Shown here in pieces: positions 18,618-33,570 of a stretch of DNA of 46,213 bases. Under the pieces are notes generated by a model. It did not search any database. It saw only the letters and a list, made by a program, of their open reading frames with translations, and had not been told where the DNA came from. Positions within the stretch are counted from its first letter, which is position 1. Every line of letters starts with the position of its first letter. The position numbers and the translations under genes were made by a program. Origin of the DNA: Candidatus Babeliales bacterium (lineage in GTDB: Bacteria > Patescibacteriota > Saccharimonadia > Saccharimonadales > UBA10212); assembly GCA_035479215.1 (NCBI GenBank), contig DATIIZ010000030.1:1-46213 (forward strand). The letters are read 5' to 3'.

Positions 18618-18672
18618 AAGTACCTCCCTTCGTCATCAAAACTTATATCATAAAATTGCTATATGGGCTAAT

Positions 18673-18700
18673 AAAAATCCCACTTATTAGTGGGATTTTT
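18673..18700 (-). terminator. intrinsic terminator downstream of groEL (symmetric A-run/T-run)
   Basis: AAAAATCCCAC-TTATTA-GTGGGATTTTT. Confidence 0.75.
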
Positions 18701-18761
18701 ACGAACCAGTCTGCTATTTTTGTGGGGTGAGTAAGAAACCCCGAAGGGGTGTCTTATCTTT

Positions 18762-20444: not shown

Positions 20445-20708
20445 CTACTTAACTGTCGCTAATATATCCTCTTCTTTAACGAGGATATATTCTTTATTGT
20501 TAACTTTTACTTCGGTAGTGCTGTAGCTTTTGTAGACTATCCGGTCACCGGCTTTGATCTCTTTAACGCTCTTCCCTACTTTAGTTACTTTTGCGATTTT
20601 GGGCTTTTCGGCCGCTTTGTCGGGCAAGTACAGGCCGCTGGCTGTTTTAGTAACGGCTTCTTCTTGCTCGGCAACCACCCAATCTGCCAATGGATTCAAT
20701 CCAGCCAT
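20445..20708 (-). CDS. groS: co-chaperonin GroES
   Basis: 87 aa, immediately upstream of groEL, with SD GGGAGG. Confidence 0.93.
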   Translation of the reverse strand: MAGLNPLADWVVAEQEEAVTKTASGLYLPDKAAEKPKIAKVTKVGKSVKEIKAGDRIVYKSYSTTEVKVNNKEYILVKEEDILATVK

Positions 20709-20765
20709 AAGTAATAAACCTCCCTTATATTTAACCTCTTAAGATTGTCCGATTTACACCGGACG

Positions 20766-20792
20766 CTAGCACTCATAATACCCGAGTGCTAA
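20766..20792 (-). promoter_or_regulatory. CIRCE operator (HrcA binding site)
   Basis: CTAGCACTC-N9-GAGTGCTAA against the consensus TTAGCACTC-N9-GAGTGCTAA, in the groES leader. Confidence 0.85.
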
Positions 20793-20804
20793 AAAGTAAG
20801 TCAA
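20775..20804 (-). promoter_or_regulatory. groES promoter
   Basis: On the minus strand: TTGACT-N18-TATTAT, with the -10 inside CIRCE. Confidence 0.6.
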
Positions 20805-20840
20805 GGGCATTTAGTTAAAGTTGCAAAAAATACAAAACGA

Positions 20841-20870
20841 TTGACTGGTGTCGGGCATAAGCTTTATACT
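20841..20870 (+). promoter_or_regulatory. promoter P1 of GC-rich island 1
   Basis: TTGACT-N18-TATACT. The 29-nt upstream module at 20819-20847 matches 21394-21422 at 23 of 29 positions. Confidence 0.55.
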
Positions 20871-20904
20871 CCGGTTATCCAGTCCCGTCGAGGAAAGGAC
20901 GCTT

Positions 20905-21255
20905 GTGAGAGCGAAAGTTGAGAAAGGCTCTAAAGGTCGCTGGTGGGTGACACCCATCGTCGATCGGCCGCTTCGGCCGAATGAGATGGGCGGCCTCGCG
21001 CGCGCGTTGCTAGGCATCGAAGGTGTCAAGCACACAAAGGTCCGTTTGCAGGACAGGAATGTGTTCCTGCGCGTGAATGAGAGCATCGAAGGGCTCTACG
21101 AAGAGATCCGCGAGACGGCGAACAAGTTCCTGGGACGGCTAGCCGCCAAGGTTTCCCGCCGCGGGGCAAAGCCTGGTGTGGTCAAGCGCATGCCGCCGAA
21201 GGCGGTGAAGCGTAGAAGGCGCCGTGGAGCGCAGGCACCAGTCTTCGGCTGGTAA
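20905..21255 (+). CDS. orphan GC-rich ORF A (116 aa) with an Arg/Lys-rich C-terminal tail
   Basis: GTG start 5 nt after GAGGAAAGGA. Third codon positions are mostly G/C. The tail is KRMPPKAVKRRRRRGAQAPVFGW. No family recognised. Confidence 0.55.
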   Translation: MRAKVEKGSKGRWWVTPIVDRPLRPNEMGGLARALLGIEGVKHTKVRLQDRNVFLRVNESIEGLYEEIRETANKFLGRLAAKVSRRGAKPGVVKRMPPKAVKRRRRRGAQAPVFGW

Positions 21256-21266
21256 GGACTGGAATC

Positions 21267-21308
21267 CGGGGCTCGGGATGGGCGAAACTCCAAACTCATC
21301 CCGAGCCC
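21267..21308 (+). terminator. 13-bp GC hairpin after ORF A (no U-tract)
   Basis: GGGGCTCGGGATG-N16-CATCCCGAGCCCC. Confidence 0.45.
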
Positions 21309-21415
21309 CAAGGGGCAAAATCCAAACACTTTTAGCCCCATTTTCGCCGCGCTGCCCTTCCCCGGGCGCGCGGCTTCGTTCTTTAGATTGATTAGTTGCA
21401 AAAGCATAAAAACTA

Positions 21416-21444
21416 TTGACTGATATGTATAAGGGGTCTATAAT
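21416..21444 (+). promoter_or_regulatory. promoter P2 of GC-rich island 1
   Basis: Consensus-grade TTGACT-N17-TATAAT, preceded by the AGTTGCAAAA module. Confidence 0.6.
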
Positions 21445-21484
21445 ACTCACATTCTCGCACTTTCCCCCGATGAAAGGAGCTGGC

Positions 21485-21832
21485 ATGTCCGATACGGTGG
21501 GTGTTATCCACTCGTCGTACAAGCTCGAGCAGGCTTGGGACAGGCACGCCCGTGGAGAAATCCTGGGTCTCCGCCTGCACTTCGAGAATCCCGACTTCAG
21601 AATCTGTCGAGGGATTCGCCGTCGTATGAAGAGCTATGCGCGCCCTCTGGGTCTGTGCGTCTGTTTCGACAACCCGATCCTGGGAGATAGGGCTGTCCTC
21701 CTCACGGAGAACGTGAAGAACAAGACGGACGGTCCGCTTGAGGAACGTGCTGAACGCTTCGCGAAGCACTTCGCCCATGGCGGCGTGCGGCGCGAGGACA
21801 CAGCTCTCGCTGCGATCGTGCTGGCCGCCTAG
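21485..21832 (+). CDS. orphan GC-rich ORF B (115 aa)
   Basis: ATG 5 nt after AAAGGAG; GC-rich third positions; no family recognised. Confidence 0.55.
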   Translation: MSDTVGVIHSSYKLEQAWDRHARGEILGLRLHFENPDFRICRGIRRRMKSYARPLGLCVCFDNPILGDRAVLLTENVKNKTDGPLEERAERFAKHFAHGGVRREDTALAAIVLAA

Positions 21833-21854
21833 GTCACACCACTCGCAAGTTTCA

Positions 21855-21880
21855 GGGTCCGGGACGTTCGTCCCGGACCC
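21855..21880 (+). terminator. 11-bp GC hairpin after ORF B
   Basis: GGGTCCGGGAC-GTTC-GTCCCGGACCC. Confidence 0.5.
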
Positions 21881-22013
21881 TCGCTCGGGGAAGTAGCGGA
21901 TTATTGTAAAGGATTAGAGCTAGAGCTCTATATGCTACCAAGCATCCTTTTACATATTAGCCGCGTGTTTCTGAATCTCCACAATCAGGAACCCGCGGCG
22001 TTTTCAGACCTGA

Positions 22014-23297
22014 TTATTTTATAAGTTTCTTAACGATTTCGATTTCGTCCCAAGCCTGCTCTTTGCCCCCCATATTGCGGGTAGTCAGATGACCCATACC
22101 TGTTAAAATCACCGTATCGCCCTTTTTCGCGGTTTCTAAGGCTGTCTTTATGGCATCTAAACGATCTTCTACTATCGTCGTTTTATTCTGGCCGCCAGCG
22201 GCCTCTATTCCTTTATAGACCGCCTTAATGATGGCGGCCGGGTCTTCAGTATAGGTTTCGTCGTCGGTCAGGAAAATCTGGTCGGCATTTTTTACAGCCA
22301 CCCCACCCATAATCGGCCGCTTCAGTTTATCCCTATCGCCGGTGGCGCCAAACACCAGGATTATTTTGCCTTTCGTCAGTTCGCGCGAAGCGGTCAAAAC
22401 GTTTTCAAGCGCATCAGGTGTGACGGCAAAGTCCACAATCACACTGAACCCGCTTTTACTCGACAGGCTAGTCATACGGCCCGCTACAGCCTCAAGTGAA
22501 GCTATTCCCTGCTCAATCTGGTGCTTGTTCAATCCCATCACCCTGCCAACCTGTATTGCCGCCAAGGAGTTATAAACATTAAAGCGCCCGGGTATCCGGC
22601 ATCTGATGTCATAAGTCTCCTCATCTGTCGTTGCTTTATACGCCACCCCGGCGGCAGATAGCTCAATATTTTTAGCTTGTAAATCGCCGGACCTGATGCC
22701 GTAAGTTTTAGAATTTTTTATGGCTGAAATGAATTTATTAGCAGTTTTGTCATCAGCGTTAATCACCCCTGTCTTAGTCCCCTTGGCATTCTTGTTTGTC
22801 AATCGGAACAACTTCACCTTGGCATTGATATAGTTTTCCATCGTCTTGTGATAATCCAAGTGGTCTTGGCTGATATTTGTCATAACCGCAATCTGAAACG
22901 GCACTCCCCAAACTCTATTTTGGGCTAGTGCCATACTCGTAACCTCCATAACTAGCCACTCAGCCCCGCCGTCCTTAATTTCTTTAAGCCGTCTCATCAT
23001 TAAAGGGGCTGGAACGTTGGTGTAGTGGTCTGGCGGAATCTTGAGCTTGTCACCTGCCCCATAAGCGACAGTTGTCATTAACCCAACCTTGTAGCCGGCC
23101 TCATGCAGCATTTTATGGATCAAAAATGCCGTCGTAGTTTTGCCATTTGTACCTGTTACACCGATAACTTTGAATTTGCGCCCCGGGAAAGAATTCAGGG
23201 AGTTAAAGAGTATTGATTCTCCAAGGTGTCCGACAGGTTCGATTTTACGGAATAAACTCCTGGGGATAAAAGCTTTGACGATTTTTCGAAAATTCAC
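22014..23297 (-). CDS. murE: Mur ligase, MurE-like (UDP-MurNAc-tripeptide synthetase)
   Basis: P-loop VIGVTGTNGKTTT with Mur central and C-terminal domains. DDETYTEDP occupies the position of the DNPR motif. GTG start after GAGGGG. At 427 aa it is shorter than a typical MurE. Confidence 0.7.
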   Translation of the reverse strand: MNFRKIVKAFIPRSLFRKIEPVGHLGESILFNSLNSFPGRKFKVIGVTGTNGKTTTAFLIHKMLHEAGYKVGLMTTVAYGAGDKLKIPPDHYTNVPAPLMMRRLKEIKDGGAEWLVMEVTSMALAQNRVWGVPFQIAVMTNISQDHLDYHKTMENYINAKVKLFRLTNKNAKGTKTGVINADDKTANKFISAIKNSKTYGIRSGDLQAKNIELSAAGVAYKATTDEETYDIRCRIPGRFNVYNSLAAIQVGRVMGLNKHQIEQGIASLEAVAGRMTSLSSKSGFSVIVDFAVTPDALENVLTASRELTKGKIILVFGATGDRDKLKRPIMGGVAVKNADQIFLTDDETYTEDPAAIIKAVYKGIEAAGGQNKTTIVEDRLDAIKTALETAKKGDTVILTGMGHLTTRNMGGKEQAWDEIEIVKKLIK

Positions 23298-23303
23298 CCC
23301 TCA

Positions 23304-23344
23304 AGTTTCGCACCACACAGGCCTGCTGTCCAGCATTGCGGGAC
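23304..23344 (-). promoter_or_regulatory. conserved ~40-nt 5'-leader element, copy 2 (upstream of murE)
   Basis: AGTTTCGCACCACACAGGCCTGCTGTCCAGCATTGCGGGAC; compare copy 1 at 6942..6983. Confidence 0.55.
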
Positions 23345-23490
23345 ACTCCGACTGTGTTCTTGGCGAATCGCTACGTTGCGGGCTGCGGTACTCCTTCACT
23401 GTATTTAAATACAGCTCAGTACGTTCCTCATCCGCGCCTTGCGCTACATCCAAGTGCGAACCTTGAGAAGTAGAAGTATACTTATAACTG

Positions 23491-24749: not shown

Positions 24750-27296
24750 ATGAACCTACCGAGCGTTTACGAGCCGGGGAAGTATGAGGAGGATATCTAT
24801 AAGCTCTGGGAAGAGAGCAAGGTATTCACTCCAAAAAGAACTAATTCCGAGGAAAGCTATTCGATAATGATGCCGTTGCCGAACGCCAATGGCCGGCTTC
24901 ATATCGGCAGTGTTTTGTTTGTTACGCTTCAAGATATTGTATCCCGGTACCAGCGCATGAAAGGGAAGCAGGTTCTTTGGCTGCCGGGTGCCGACCATGC
25001 CGGTTTCGAAACTTGGGTGGTTTATGAAAAGAAGTTAAATAAAGAAGGCAGATCTCGGTTTGACTACAGCCGGGAAGAGCTATACAAGCAAGTTTGGGAC
25101 TTTGTAGCCAGCAATCGGAAGGTATTTGAGCAGCAATTTAGAGAACTCGGCGCCAGTGTAGACTGGACTCGCTTTACTTTCTCGCTTGATGAAAAAATCG
25201 TAAATCAAGTCTATAAGACTTTTAAAAAGATGTGGGATGATGGGCTTGTTTACAGGGGTGAGAGAATAGTCAATTATTGTACCTATCATGGCACTAGTTT
25301 CGCTGATATCGAGGTCGAATATAAAGATGTGGACAGCCATCTTTGGCACATAGCCTATCCCTTAACAGATGCTAGCGGGGAAGTGGTGGTGGCTACGACC
25401 AGGCCGGAAACAATGCTGGGCGATGTGGCCGTGGCAGTCAATCCATCAGATGACAGATATAAGAAATATATCGGTAAAACAGTTAAATTACCTCTGACCA
25501 ACAGGGAAATTCCGATAATCGCTGATGAATTTGTCGATTCCAATTTCGGGACAGGTGCAGTAAAGCTTACTCCGGCCCACGACCCGGTAGACTTTGAAGC
25601 AGGACAGAGGCACGACCTGCCCATGATATCCGTTATAGACCATGAGGGGAATATGACTCATCATGCCCCGGAACCCTACCGAGGACTTGCGGCTGAAGAA
25701 GCCCGGAAAAAAGTGGTAGACGATCTAGAAAAAGCCGGCCTTATCAAGAAGATAGAAGAATATAGCCACAGCGTCGGGCACTGTTATAAATGCGGGAATG
25801 TAATCCAGCCGCTCTTGCTGGAGCAATGGTTTGTCGATATGAAACCGCTAGCAGCTCGAGCCATTGATTCTCTAAAAGAAAAGAAGATAAAGTTTTACCC
25901 CGACAGCAAACGTACCCAACTTATCAGATACCTAGACGGGCTTAAAGATTGGAATATAAGTCGCCAGATCGCCTGGGGGATACCGATACCGGCCTTTCGT
26001 AATGTTAATGATGACCAAGACTGGATCTACGACGAAAGGGTAGGGGAAGAAGAAATATCGGTAGACGGTAAAACTTATGTCCGTGATCCTGATGTATTTG
26101 ACACTTGGTTTTCTTCAGGGCAGTGGCCGTTTGCCGCCTTAGGTCTGGATAGCCAAGATCTTGAACAATTCTATCCTACAAGTCTTATGGAAACTGGGGG
26201 AGAAATCCTATATCCGTGGGTGTCGCGGATGATTATGCTCGGGCTGTACATGACCGACGAGGTTCCTTTCGAAGATGTTTATATTCACGGCTATGTACTG
26301 GCAGCTGACGGGGCCAAGATGAGCAAAAGCTTGGGCAATATTATCGATCCCGATGGTCTGCGTATAAAATATGGCGCCGATGCCTTAAGACTAGGGATCA
26401 TCGATGGCCGCGCGCCAGCAATTAATCGACCATTCGATGAGACTAAAGCCAAGGCCGGGCGAAACTTCTGCAATAAGCTTTGGAATATTTCCAGATATAT
26501 TGAAGGAGCAGCAGGACAGGGAGATAGTTCTAGCCCTAAGCCAAACAGCCCAGCGGACCACTGGATACTTAACAAGTTAAGTAATTTAACAGAAGGGTTA
26601 GACGCAGATTTGAGTAAATATCGTTTTGGTGATGCTTATCTAAAACTTTATCACTTCGTATGGGATGATCTGGCCGATTGGTACATCGAGGCTTCTAAAA
26701 CCGAACTTAATCCAGGCCTTCTAAAATACGTCCTGGAATCAACCTTAATTGTCGCCCATCCTTTCGCCCCATTCATTACAGAGGTAATTTGGCAGAATTT
26801 AGGGCACAAAGAACTTTTAGCAACTCAGCTATTGCCCAAAATTTCCGAATCAGATAAATCCGAAGCCGGTAAATTCAAAGGAATTAAAGAACTAATAGCG
26901 GAAATCCGAATGTGGAATGCCACAACTTCTACTAAAGCCCAGGACTTCTACTATGGGAGTACGAACTGGGTAGATGAGCAGCGAGACATATTGGAAAAAT
27001 TGGCTCGCTTAGAGAATATCAGCCATTCAGAAGCGAAACCGTCTGGCACTATCCCGCTGACATCTGTTGACGGCGACTTTTGGCTAAGAATTGACCGCGA
27101 TGCAGCAAAACCGAACCTAGAAAAACTGCTGGCTAATTATCGGCAAAGTGAAAAGTTACTCAAACGGCGATTAGATAGTCCGGGCTATAAAGATAAAGCT
27201 CCACAAGAAATTGTTGCTCAAACTGAAAAAGAACTAGTTGAAACCAGTGCGCTGGCAAGTGTGGTGGAAAAACAGTTGAAGTCTTTAGAAGACTAG
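24750..27296 (+). CDS. valS: valine--tRNA ligase
   Basis: A HIGH-like motif (NGRLHIGS), KMSKS (KMSKSLGN) and a C-terminal coiled coil; 848 aa. Confidence 0.93.
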   Translation: MNLPSVYEPGKYEEDIYKLWEESKVFTPKRTNSEESYSIMMPLPNANGRLHIGSVLFVTLQDIVSRYQRMKGKQVLWLPGADHAGFETWVVYEKKLNKEGRSRFDYSREELYKQVWDFVASNRKVFEQQFRELGASVDWTRFTFSLDEKIVNQVYKTFKKMWDDGLVYRGERIVNYCTYHGTSFADIEVEYKDVDSHLWHIAYPLTDASGEVVVATTRPETMLGDVAVAVNPSDDRYKKYIGKTVKLPLTNREIPIIADEFVDSNFGTGAVKLTPAHDPVDFEAGQRHDLPMISVIDHEGNMTHHAPEPYRGLAAEEARKKVVDDLEKAGLIKKIEEYSHSVGHCYKCGNVIQPLLLEQWFVDMKPLAARAIDSLKEKKIKFYPDSKRTQLIRYLDGLKDWNISRQIAWGIPIPAFRNVNDDQDWIYDERVGEEEISVDGKTYVRDPDVFDTWFSSGQWPFAALGLDSQDLEQFYPTSLMETGGEILYPWVSRMIMLGLYMTDEVPFEDVYIHGYVLAADGAKMSKSLGNIIDPDGLRIKYGADALRLGIIDGRAPAINRPFDETKAKAGRNFCNKLWNISRYIEGAAGQGDSSSPKPNSPADHWILNKLSNLTEGLDADLSKYRFGDAYLKLYHFVWDDLADWYIEASKTELNPGLLKYVLESTLIVAHPFAPFITEVIWQNLGHKELLATQLLPKISESDKSEAGKFKGIKELIAEIRMWNATTSTKAQDFYYGSTNWVDEQRDILEKLARLENISHSEAKPSGTIPLTSVDGDFWLRIDRDAAKPNLEKLLANYRQSEKLLKRRLDSPGYKDKAPQEIVAQTEKELVETSALASVVEKQLKSLED

Positions 27297-32248: not shown

Positions 32249-32445
32249 GGTAAGGAATGCTTAACTTGTTAAGTATTTTTATAATGAACGAAAGTTATAG
32301 ATTAACTAGGAAATAGAATCTAAGCATAAGCAATTGCTTTTTACCCCTGTTAGTGGTATGAATTAGACAGCATCAAGGCACTACCCGTTTGGGCCCGTCT
32401 TGGGCCGCACATTCCGACTACGAGTTCGCTCGTGAGGGGAGACCC

Positions 32446-32943
32446 ATGTCTCGTAAGCATGGAGCGCTGTTGATTGCAGCGCTCGCCGTTATGGCTTTGG
32501 CGACGACCGCGAGTGGCTCGAATGCTGCTCCTGCGTCGGCAAAGATCAAGTGCGAGTCGACTAGGACCCAGATCCGAATCACGATTTGCGGTCCGACAAT
32601 CGTCGATCCGACCACCACAACGCCGTTTTCGGTGAGGGTGAGCTACCCTCGTGGCAAGCCGATCAGCAAGATCGTCATCAACATCGGCCCGAGCGACTAC
32701 GTCGTGACGCCCGCCAGCGCCCAAGGTCACACCACATACGACCAGTCGTACAAGATTCAGGCGGTCACCTGGACCGTCAAGCACTTCCGTGCTGGTACTG
32801 GAATCACCAAGAGATTGGGATTCCAGTTCCCACCGGAGAACACGTACGGCTCGAGCCTCTTCGTGCATGTCGGGGCCTATGGGCCCTACTACAAGGCCGG
32901 GCTGATGAGATTCGTCACCTACCGGCAAGTCCAAGGCGGCTAG
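32446..32943 (+). CDS. orphan GC-rich secreted protein D (165 aa)
   Basis: ATG after GAGGGGAG. The signal peptide is MSRKHGALLIAALAVMALATTASGSNAAPASA. The body is beta-rich with two Cys, and third codon positions are strongly G/C. Confidence 0.6.
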   Translation: MSRKHGALLIAALAVMALATTASGSNAAPASAKIKCESTRTQIRITICGPTIVDPTTTTPFSVRVSYPRGKPISKIVINIGPSDYVVTPASAQGHTTYDQSYKIQAVTWTVKHFRAGTGITKRLGFQFPPENTYGSSLFVHVGAYGPYYKAGLMRFVTYRQVQGG

Positions 32944-32968
32944 CTCGCCGCACGCGCAGCAGTAACGC

Positions 32969-32992
32969 GGCCCCCGTGGAGACACGGGGGCC
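32969..32992 (+). terminator. 10-bp GC hairpin after ORF D
   Basis: GGCCCCCGTG-GAGA-CACGGGGGCC. Confidence 0.5.
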
Positions 32993-33010
32993 GAGAAATA
33001 CCAAATCACA

Positions 33011-33039
33011 TTGCACGCTTATGTTTATATAACTATAAT
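33011..33039 (+). promoter_or_regulatory. promoter of the pilus-associated operon
   Basis: TTGCAC-N17-TATAAT, 9 nt before the ATG at 33049. Confidence 0.5.
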
Positions 33040-33048
33040 GCCTACTAT

Positions 33049-33570
33049 ATGGCGGACGCCAAAAGAATTATTGGTGTAGTTAAGGCAAAAACTTCTTGGC
33101 TAAAAGAATCAACGCGAACTATCTTGAGTCTCTTCCTCATATGTTCATTGGTAATAGGAGCAATTATTTTATGGAAATACATACGAAGCGATCATAGGCA
33201 TTTTGTTGCTGAGTCTGCAGCACCTCCAACGGTTGCACAGTTTGAGAAGCAACAGCAGAATAATACAAGCAGCTATCTTAAAGACAAGAACTACATTAAC
33301 TACCAAAGGACTCAGCAAGACTTGGCAATTGAGTATATGGCCAATAAAGACTACACCAGCGCCGAAAGAGTAATGAATGATGTATTTAAAAATACTCCAA
33401 CAAATAAAATGAACTCCGAAAGTTATATGGTTATGATAGAAGTAGAAAAAAATAAAGGCAATACATCTGAGTATAAGAAGTACCTTAAACTTGCTATAGA
33501 TAAATTGAACGCCGAAGGAGATAAAAAAACCGCAGCATTGTATCAGGATGAGCTGAAGGGTATACAATAA
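33049..33570 (+). CDS. membrane-anchored TPR-like protein
   Basis: An N-terminal TM with helical repeats (EYMANKDYTSAERVMNDVFK). Its stop overlaps the next start (TAATG). Confidence 0.55.
   Translation: MADAKRIIGVVKAKTSWLKESTRTILSLFLICSLVIGAIILWKYIRSDHRHFVAESAAPPTVAQFEKQQQNNTSSYLKDKNYINYQRTQQDLAIEYMANKDYTSAERVMNDVFKNTPTNKMNSESYMVMIEVEKNKGNTSEYKKYLKLAIDKLNAEGDKKTAALYQDELKGIQ

Follow-up and report, generated by a model that had tools for sequence, protein, structure and literature searches.

The question raised by contig DATIIZ010000030.1 (assembly GCA_035479215.1) is how a kilobase of DNA clearly richer in guanine and cytosine (GC) than its surroundings came to lie between groES and murE, and what it encodes. 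The stretch analysed, positions 1-46,213 (numbered in nucleotides, nt), is called the window below; the kilobase contains two small open reading frames (ORFs), designated ORF A and ORF B. The original prediction described a recently inserted island of two orphan genes, possibly transferred from an actinobacterial host. Comparison with related loci gives another answer. Both ORFs have homologues in related Saccharimonadales and are not orphans, and the homologues occupy the same locus in diverged relatives, which contradicts a recent insertion of two genes. In its structure and evolution the groES-murE gap is probably a long-standing slot, found throughout the clade in Saccharimonadales of soil and groundwater, that carries self-contained gene cassettes.

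The groES-murE gap and its gene families

A search with the MurE protein placed the window in the Saccharimonadales (Saccharibacteria), with the nearest species representatives at 59% identity. The order murE-gap-groES-groEL is kept through the Saccharimonadales, with gaps of about 120 nt to more than 5 kb. Related loci are given L numbers here. The sister species is represented by L001, with a MurE 90% identical to that of the window and a synonymous divergence (dS) of 0.7-0.9 in groEL, murE and tsaD.

A single-sequence search with ORF A found only ORF A itself. Local comparison showed it to be similar over its full length (27% identity) to the first ORF after groES in L155. A two-sequence profile led to the proteins P0004-P0006, and a four-sequence profile gave 12 matches at E <= 1e-3 among 1.84 billion representatives. 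Eleven of these, the entry of ORF A included, are full-length matches of 102-120 amino acids (aa); the twelfth is a 1328-aa repeat protein with eight short matched stretches, which was not inspected. The family has the signature M+A+V..KKGR..V....EL..LA..LR.I.GVKRA.VR...IYLRVN......F, followed by a basic tail. By its profile matches and this signature ORF A is a member of a previously undescribed protein family. The GTG start of ORF A agrees with the N-termini of the family (MKARI or MRAQV); the gene caller of the source database had begun the gene 14 codons too late (P0001, 102 aa).

L155, L173/174 and L176-178 have a member of the ORF A family in the groES-murE gap, immediately divergent from groES. 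In L179 one gene lies between it and groES, and in L166-171 it is the second cassette. Five new members were looked up, of which three lie beside groES and two, L172 and L175, are on contigs too short for context. Wherever the context sufficed the family was found in the gap, mostly directly divergent from groES. Homologues of ORF B are found in two related lineages (L001-L005 and L166-L171). The homologue on the Joint Genome Institute (JGI) contigs L001-L005, P0003, is 78-79% identical and has the same neighbours; the identity to the L166 copy is 42-44%.

Cassette structure

The slot would carry one or more cassettes, and two of them can be recognized in the window (Table 1). Each would comprise a near-consensus sigma-70 promoter together with the A-rich element upstream of it, a short leader that contains a strong Shine-Dalgarno sequence, an ORF of high GC content and about 100-170 codons, a perfect GC hairpin of 12-15 bp and, further on, a U-tract terminator. 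The promoter of the first cassette, P1, would lie back to back with the groESL promoter and its putative operator, the controlling inverted repeat of chaperone expression (CIRCE). The back-to-back arrangement had been predicted and was confirmed, with 36 nt between the -35 boxes.

The promoter scan found 5 promoter-like sites where 1.3 were expected from shuffles, and P1, P2 and the groES promoter were identified. P2 has 11/12 consensus matches, and from -35 to -10, spacer included, it is identical to L001. P1 and P2 are two copies of a repeat that includes the A-rich sequence upstream of each (79% identity over 29 nt, 0 matches expected by chance), and the conserved leader CTCCGGTTAT follows P1. 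Every unit starts with one and the same element, TTGCAAAAGCATAAAAA(1-3 nt)ATTGACTGATA...TATACTCCGGTTAT (TTGCAAAAGCATAAAAA..ATTGACT), of which 32 copies were found in the collected related loci. Where the contig includes groES, the element lies in the gap upstream of groES and points away from it. It precedes at least six ORF families that are mutually unrelated by profile comparison, hhalign showing no significant relation among six slot families. A palindromic operator upstream of the -35 box was also considered; its left arm (TGCTT) is present in some copies only and the sequence was therefore treated as A-rich and UP-like.

The units end in a perfect GC hairpin of 12-15 bp and many of them also in a conserved terminator, CCGCGG-TTTCTGA-tcgtCTCCACgac-TCAGAAAC-CGCGG-TTTT. 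The form CCGCGGTTTCTGA-tcgtCTCCACgac-TCAGAAACCGCGG-TTTT ends the cassettes in L155, L095, L131, L129 and L166, and the copy in the window lies 14 nt from the murE stop codon. Its loop TTTCTGA-tcgtCTCCACgac-TCAGAAA is kept like the stem, in lineages with synonymously saturated coding sequence; this conservation suggests that the terminator may have a role beyond termination.

The set of hairpins behind ORF A is found behind the unrelated ORF X in L001 and L093. In the first of them the stem is kept in both loci and the loop varies, one A-to-G change preserving a G-U pair, and the two further hairpins are kept as well, there behind a different ORF. The 139 nt with all three hairpins (21256-21394) have a folding energy of -69.1 kcal/mol (z = -6.06). 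The hairpin after ORF B is kept in L001 with a different loop, and a similar one, GAGGGTCGGGAA..TTCCCGACCCTC, is found downstream of the ORF B homologue in L166. The original prediction gave each ORF its own promoter, Shine-Dalgarno sequence and GC-rich third codon positions, and hairpins without a U tract. All of this was found, yet U-tract terminators exist further downstream.

The cassette promoters would be strong and probably constitutive, with an UP-like A-tract, and the GC hairpins probably stabilize the 3' ends of the mRNA and help to terminate transcription.

Table 1. Features of the groES-murE slot and other features of the window
Feature	Position (strand)	Description	Basis
CIRCE operator	20766-20792	CTAGCACTC-N9-GAGTGCTAA; overlaps the -10 box of the groES promoter	sequence read
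groES promoter	20804-20775 (-)	predicted; -35 at 20804-20799, -10 at 20780-20775	promoter scan
P1, cassette-1 promoter	20819-20870 (+)	predicted; A-rich upstream element AGTTGCAAAAAATACAAAACGA; -35 TTGACT 20841-20846; 18-nt spacer; -10 TATACT 20865-20870	
Shine-Dalgarno of ORF A	20890-20899 (+)	GAGGAAAGGA, 5 nt upstream of the GTG start	
ORF A	20905-21255 (+)	GTG start, 116 aa; predicted folded ββαββα domain (1-87) and disordered Arg/Lys tail (88-116)	
GC hairpin after ORF A	21268-21309 (+)	perfect 13-bp stem (15 pairs with G-U), no U tract	
Two further hairpins	21312-21384 (+)	GGGGC..GCCCC (21312-21339) then ATTTTC; GCCGCGC..GCGCGGC (21346-21374) then TTCGTTCTTT; likely the terminator of cassette 1	
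P2, cassette-2 promoter	21394-21444 (+)	predicted; AGTTGCAAAAGCATAAAAACTA; -35 TTGACT 21416-21421; 17-nt spacer; -10 TATAAT 21439-21444	
Shine-Dalgarno of ORF B	21474-21480 (+)	AAAGGAG, 4 nt upstream of the ATG start	
ORF B	21485-21832 (+)	ATG start, 115 aa; predicted ββαββα domain and C-terminal helix; end ...AIVLAA	
GC hairpin after ORF B	21854-21881 (+)	AGGGTCCGGGACG-TT-CGTCCCGGACCCT, perfect 13-bp stem, no U tract	
Terminator hairpin	21960-22005 (+)	predicted; GCCGCG-TGTTTCTGA-ATCTCCACAA-TCAGGAACC-CGCGGC (21960-21999) then GTTTTC	
murE stop codon	22014-22016 (-)		
murE-tsaD insert	23298-23475	about 170 nt; ends form the inverted repeat CTCAAGTTTCGCAC ... GTGCGAACCTTGAG	
valS	24750-27296 (+)	valyl-tRNA synthetase (ValRS)	
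Second GC-rich gene	32446-32943 (+)	61% GC, 165 aa, N-terminal signal-peptide-like segment; Shine-Dalgarno site GAGGGGAG; GC hairpin without U tract at about 32965-32993	

Rearrangement of the cassettes

The order, number and content of the A and B units vary among relatives, with breakpoints at the repeated promoter and terminator sequences. The window has A followed by B. The order is B followed by A in L166-L171 (MurE 71% identical to that of the window), A stands alone in L155 (68%, from a partial MurE), and in L001 an ORF designated X is followed by B.

In L001 the unalignable X takes the place of the body of ORF A, and the flanking non-coding DNA, including the CIRCE/groES promoter region, is 96-98% identical to the window. 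Conservation in these flanks exceeds that at synonymous sites in the genes alongside. No similarity of ORF A to the ORFs on either strand of the L001 cassette was found except in the last residues, PVFG against PAFG. The caller of the source database had annotated in this cassette a 126-aa ORF (L001:4496-4876, minus strand) antisense to the promoter-driven strand; together with the late start given to ORF A this shows that automatic gene calls in the GC-rich units are unreliable.

The alignment of L155 with L166 starts exactly at TTGCAAAAGCATAAAAA and ends at the common terminator. The extra B cassette of L166 is thus bounded by two promoter copies that share an identical stretch of 20 nt. The breakpoints point to homologous recombination through repeated regulatory sequences, and cassettes would be gained, lost, reordered and swapped in this way via the 20-30-nt promoter repeats and the conserved terminators.

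Selection and base composition

Substitution patterns in both families are those of protein-coding genes. ORF B and P0003 differ at 12/12/34 sites of codon positions 1/2/3 and by a 3-nt indel that keeps the frame, with a ratio of non-synonymous to synonymous divergence (dN/dS) of 0.26. In the ORF A family, the L155 and L166 genes differ at 12/12/30 sites (dN/dS 0.25). ORF A and ORF B are shown to be real genes under purifying selection.

The GC content of the whole window is 46.3%. At 20905-21895 it is 59.0%, compared with 46.4 ± 3.0% for all 1-kb windows (z = 4.2, the maximum of the window); 500-nt windows within 21001-22000 have 57-58% and 100-nt windows up to 69%. The tetranucleotide L1 distance of 20905-21895 is also the largest in the window (z = 5.8). 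A GC-rich island of about 1 kb is therefore present as predicted, and so is the mosaic of GC-rich coding sequence behind AT-rich, near-consensus promoters. Only one other segment in the window, 32321-33061, attains 57% GC over 400 nt. It contains a gene for which Pfam gives no match (Table 1), which shows that GC-rich small genes of unassigned function recur in this genome.

The GC content at codon positions 1/2/3 is 0.66/0.47/0.72 in ORF A and 0.66/0.43/0.71 in ORF B, a periodicity of the kind seen in coding sequence. The third-position value (GC3) of groEL, groES, murE and tsaD is 0.46-0.53. Genes of the A family have a GC content of 0.60-0.65 and a GC3 of 0.72-0.83 in the six lineages with groES (0.66-0.83 over all eight measured); the adjacent groES genes in the six lineages have 0.44-0.49 and 0.42-0.62, respectively. 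GC3 is 0.71-0.83 in the B family and 0.67-0.86 in first-position ORFs of other families.

Cassette proteins diverge far faster than their neighbours, down to about 25% identity between lineages in which MurE still has about 70%. High GC3 is found down to this level of identity, over a span in which a foreign relic should have decayed. At synonymous sites the cassette genes have a dS of 0.46-0.47, both between the window and L001 and between L155 and L166. The neighbouring genes have 0.72-0.94 in the first comparison (groEL, murE and tsaD; 0.30 in the 87-codon groES) and about 1.5 in the second (murE and groES, the latter 1.56). The non-synonymous divergence of the cassettes is at least as high as that of the neighbours. 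The lower dS, together with the high GC of the whole family, indicates that the GC content is maintained rather than inherited from a donor. Active maintenance of the excess would come from selection on synonymous sites or mRNA, or else from a recombination hot spot with GC-biased gene conversion. Selection (on mRNA stability or structure, or on codon choice), biased gene conversion and recent exchange are not separated by these data.

Several points weigh against the slot-and-cassette account. The coding signature of ORF X in L001 is weak (0.68/0.53/0.57 GC at the three codon positions), and this ORF may be decaying. The lower dS of the cassettes could reflect recent exchange between lineages instead of constraint. 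Homologous recombination is deduced from breakpoints, and the promoters and terminators are predictions from consensus matches and strong conservation. The slot families could be one superfamily diverged beyond recognition or unrelated genes recruited to one platform, two histories that the comparison does not separate. For A and B, the equal predicted topology would speak for a common origin, with a modest mean predicted local distance difference test (pLDDT) score of 66 in the ORF B model; BLASTP found nothing between them and hhalign gave P = 0.16. Lastly, the searches name no function. Pfam and PADLOC (E <= 10) gave no families for ORF A or ORF B and no model of a defence, toxin or antitoxin component, PHROGs gave only a PHROG of unknown function (E = 0.035), and NCBIfam had no accepted match for the ORF families. 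Sequence-profile searches of the PDB with both families returned nothing or noise, and Foldseek with both models found nothing in the PDB at E < 1e-3.

Predicted structures and possible functions

The AlphaFold model of ORF A, made from 4 sequences, has a block-mean pLDDT of 85-90 at residues 1-80 and below 50 from residue 87 on. Its elements are β(2-7), β(12-18), α(25-36), β(41-47), β(52-57), α(64-87) and the disordered tail ...RRGAKPGVVKRMPPKAVKRRRRRGAQAPVFGW. The basic C-terminus claimed for ORF A is thus present as an Arg/Lys tail that is predicted to be disordered. The ORF B model has the same order of elements with an extra C-terminal helix of low confidence. The best Foldseek match in the PDB was archaeal RNA polymerase subunit L/Rpb11 for both ORF A (E = 6.9e-3, weak) and ORF B (E = 0.28). 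For ORF A the template modelling (TM) scores to RpoL/Rpb11 are 0.36-0.47 with respect to the query and 0.38-0.57 with respect to the target. HMA domains come next for ORF A (E = 0.017-0.06, also weak), and its model found nothing among the viral structures of BFVD at E < 1e-3. Assignment of ORF A as an HMA domain was rejected, since it has no cysteine and hence no GMxCxxC metal-binding loop, the order of elements differs from the βαββαβ of HMA and the matches are weak.

Most first-position ORFs in the slot have an isoelectric point (pI) of 10-12 and a tail rich in Arg and Lys. The products would be abundant small proteins with a ββαββα domain for interaction or dimerization, and with a basic tail in ORF A and most first-position ORFs. 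Within the slot-and-cassette account it is a tentative suggestion that these tails bind nucleic acid, whether RNA, the ribosome or DNA.

Some slot proteins have C-termini that resemble the ssrA tag: IVLAA in ORF B (21815-21832), GGLAA in L095 and TLVAA in L124 and L159; among further ends, CEAA and AAAA occur (L155, L144). Such ends could mark the proteins for rapid proteolysis, but the pattern is inconsistent across families and a degron was set aside as an explanation.

The alternative that survives best, though improbable, is that the cassettes encode effectors directed at the host. They would be delivered for instance by a type IV secretion system (T4SS) with the basic tail as signal, and an arms race would drive the turnover. 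Positively charged C-terminal tails act as signals in VirB/D4 systems, and most first-position ORFs have positively charged, disordered C-termini. Fast evolution, replacement at a fixed platform and strong predicted expression signals would also agree with effectors. T4SS genes are reported to be essential for the epibiotic growth of Saccharimonadia, and these systems are mostly without a relaxase, from which co-option for another role has been suggested (PMC12102498). The dN/dS of 0.25 is however purifying and overall not positive, and ORF B has no basic tail. No T4SS gene is linked to the slot in the window or in the loci examined, inspection of the sequences by eye, with no prediction program, showed no apparent signal peptide, and effector domains were not detected. 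For the monoderm-type T4SS no secretion signal is known.

An extension of this idea, somewhat less probable still, makes the groES slot a dedicated diversification platform of epibiotic Saccharimonadales. Small effector genes would be swapped, duplicated and reordered in it by recombination within a conserved frame of very strong promoters and terminators, and the tails would be T4SS signals. The persistently high GC, similar to that of an actinobacterial host, would come from biased gene conversion driven by recombination or from adaptation to acting on host nucleic acids.

Equally doubtful is the reading of ORF A as a very divergent SUI1/YciH-like translation factor, an inhibitor of initiation in the stress response beside a heat-shock operon. 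Three closely related family members have weak matches to the NCBIfam model YciH (PRK09019; E = 0.035-0.095), collinear over the whole domain (residues 8-68 of P0004 against 41-99 of the 108 profile positions), and there is one further weak match to Sui1. With hhalign the same register is obtained over β2-α1-β3 (P = 0.016). The eIF1 fold is ββαββαβ with a five-stranded mixed sheet. Its first six elements are arranged much like the ββαββα predicted for ORF A, and the conserved KKGR falls within the β1-β2 loop, the place of GRK(G) in eIF1 and YciH. The scores are nevertheless low, 12.8 bits against a cut-off of 142 and an hhalign probability of 2.8%, and Pfam gave no SUI1 (PF01253) match in 13 members of the ORF A family at E <= 1. 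Structures of eIF1, aIF1 and YciH are in the PDB, yet none is among the 50 Foldseek matches listed; in the ORF A model β5 is missing and α2 is long. Variation in presence and absence and replacement between sister species would, moreover, be unusual for a translation factor.

Origin of the locus

Recent acquisition of an unameliorated two-gene island from a high-GC donor, whether actinobacterial host, phage or plasmid, is distinctly improbable. The deviation in GC and tetranucleotides and the variable content among close relatives agree with it, as would the apparent replacement of another gene in the same genome, valS. The ValRS of the window shares only 42% identity with the enzyme encoded at the corresponding position in each of L001 and L166, for which the identities are 90% and 71% in MurE and 98% and 87% in GroEL. 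Nucleotide identity falls to about 50-60% across valS, which looks like an in-place replacement by a distant version.

Against recent acquisition stand the syntenic homologues in diverged relatives, which largely refute it, and the GC3 of 0.66-0.83, which is retained among members with as little as 25% identity and does not fit a transient foreign signature. Donor candidates were sought widely. No homologue of A or B outside the Saccharimonadales locus was recognized among 5.8 billion proteins, and among the 1.84 billion representatives, searched with the ORF A profile, the only other match was the 1328-aa repeat protein, which was not inspected. Neither ORF had a blastn or tblastn match in 50,697 phage genomes and 72,556 plasmids, and the viral contigs of IMG/VR contained no relative of ORF B (profile search) and no copy of the promoter pattern. 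Signatures of mobility were also absent from the locus: there is no integrase, tRNA target or flanking target duplication. The neighbours are groES/groEL, murE, tsaD and valS, the nearest tRNAs lie at 13.3 and 31.4 kb, and the sole direct repeat is the internal promoter repeat.

The suggested transfer from an actinobacterial host accordingly finds no support in the homologues recognized or in the family-wide GC3. Of the predicted insertion the turnover of the locus stands, since the content differs between relatives and L001 has the body of ORF A replaced; a recent foreign insertion does not. Chimeric assembly is unlikely because the same junctions are found on independent contigs from other samples. 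L001-L005 contain the groES-P1 and ORF B-murE junctions, and L166-L171 contain both gene families.

An integron-like, site-specific cassette system with the GC hairpins as attC-type sites is very improbable. The tandem single-ORF units, each ending in an inverted repeat and variable in order and content, would fit such a system. There is however no adjacent integrase (the neighbouring genes called encode Cpn10/Cpn60, a Mur ligase, TsaD and ValRS), and no recombinase was found among the Pfam-annotated genes called within ±6 kb in L001 and L166; in the window the ORFs on either side are groES and murE. Each unit is provided with a promoter, which integron cassettes lack, and the perfect stems do not have the bulged architecture of attC. 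No GTTRRRY core is present at the unit boundaries, the sole match being ATTTAAC at 20729 beside groES, and the breakpoints fall in long direct promoter repeats, as homologous recombination predicts.

Just as hard to uphold is the view that the ORFs are spurious and that each unit is the gene of a structured non-coding RNA, complete with promoter and terminator. In its favour, islands of high GC in genomes richer in AT often are RNAs, GC-rich DNA gives long chance ORFs, ORFs here overlap in several frames on both strands (the caller picked an antisense one in L001) and promoter and hairpins are better conserved than the body. It is contradicted by the third-position bias and the dN/dS of about 0.25 in both families, protein homology with conserved motifs down to 25% identity, the confident AlphaFold prediction, the correct Shine-Dalgarno spacing and coding bodies whose folding is barely more stable than that of shuffles (z = -1.6 and -2.1). 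Rfam found only two tRNAs in the whole window at the gathering threshold, and at E <= 10 its best match in 20700-22050 was sX13, with 24 bits against a threshold of 50.

Other variable features near the slot

The insert between murE and tsaD (Table 1) is absent from L001. It has a folding z of -2.4 and no match in Rfam; a small structured RNA and a miniature mobile element are two possible readings. L001 has between groEL and a 151-aa ORF a gene for a 279-aa regulator of the GerE/LuxR type (L001:1490-2329), which is missing from the window at about 18620-18760 (an indel of about 890 nt). Many relatives (L102, L103, L113, L123, L142, L147, L161 and L179) have in the gap, between a small ORF and murE, a conserved gene whose product of about 265 aa resembles amidinotransferases of the DDAH/arginine deiminase type (MSKKILMCPPTYFDIEYEINVWMH...GGGVKCLTL); it is missing from the window, L001 and L166.

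Implications

Host bacteria are indispensable to Saccharibacteria and other Patescibacteria. Very few molecules are known that mediate or regulate this way of life, and annotation is missing for most of the small genes specific to these lineages. The locus provides an undescribed family with a clear signature and a fixed address beside groESL. Content that differs even between sister species marks the slot genes as candidates for adaptive, possibly host-related functions. With a GC content some 15 points higher than that of its genome, retained through deep divergence, the family is a clean natural test case for selection on synonymous sites versus GC-biased gene conversion. For genome scans it is a caution that a sharp GC island alone is no evidence of recent transfer.

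Comparison with known systems

To our knowledge no counterpart of this kind of modular cassette slot has been described. Integron arrays share with it the fixed chromosomal platform, the tandem single-ORF units, the terminal inverted repeats and the variable number, order and content. The slot differs in having no integrase, attI, attC architecture or core sites, and in the promoter and terminator of every unit; its rearrangement points in repeated promoter sequence suggest homologous rather than site-specific recombination. Horizontally acquired genomic islets are similar in the sharp deviation of GC and k-mers over about 1 kb, the unannotated genes and the content that varies among close relatives. 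Unlike these, the locus has no mobility genes, tRNA or target duplications, donor homologues were not found, the homologues lie at the same locus across a deep clade, and the GC signature outlasts long divergence.

At the protein level ORF A resembles SUI1/eIF1/YciH in size, in the predicted β-β-α-β-β-α order, in a basic motif of G-R-K type in the first hairpin loop and in the stress-gene neighbourhood. It differs in scores far under the thresholds, in the final β-strand missing from the model and in belonging to genes that are dispensable and replaceable between sister species. RBP11-like proteins (RpoL/Rpb11) and HMA sandwiches, the best Foldseek matches, are comparable in the predicted ββαββα domain of about 85 residues. 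The identities are however 7-21% with no E below 1e-3, no metal-binding CxxC motif is present, and a basic disordered tail is absent from those families. Small basic proteins associated with the nucleoid or RNA and provided with disordered Lys/Arg tails include the actinobacterial HupB/HupS and the chlamydial Hc1. The slot proteins have no HU- or H1-like sequence or fold, and their rapid divergence and turnover are atypical of nucleoid proteins; they are alike in small size, a pI of 10-12, a disordered tail rich in Arg, Lys, Pro and Ala on a compact domain, and strong expression signals. ORF A represents a new, uncharacterized family with ORF B as a companion family, at a locus that resembles known kinds of variable accessory loci.

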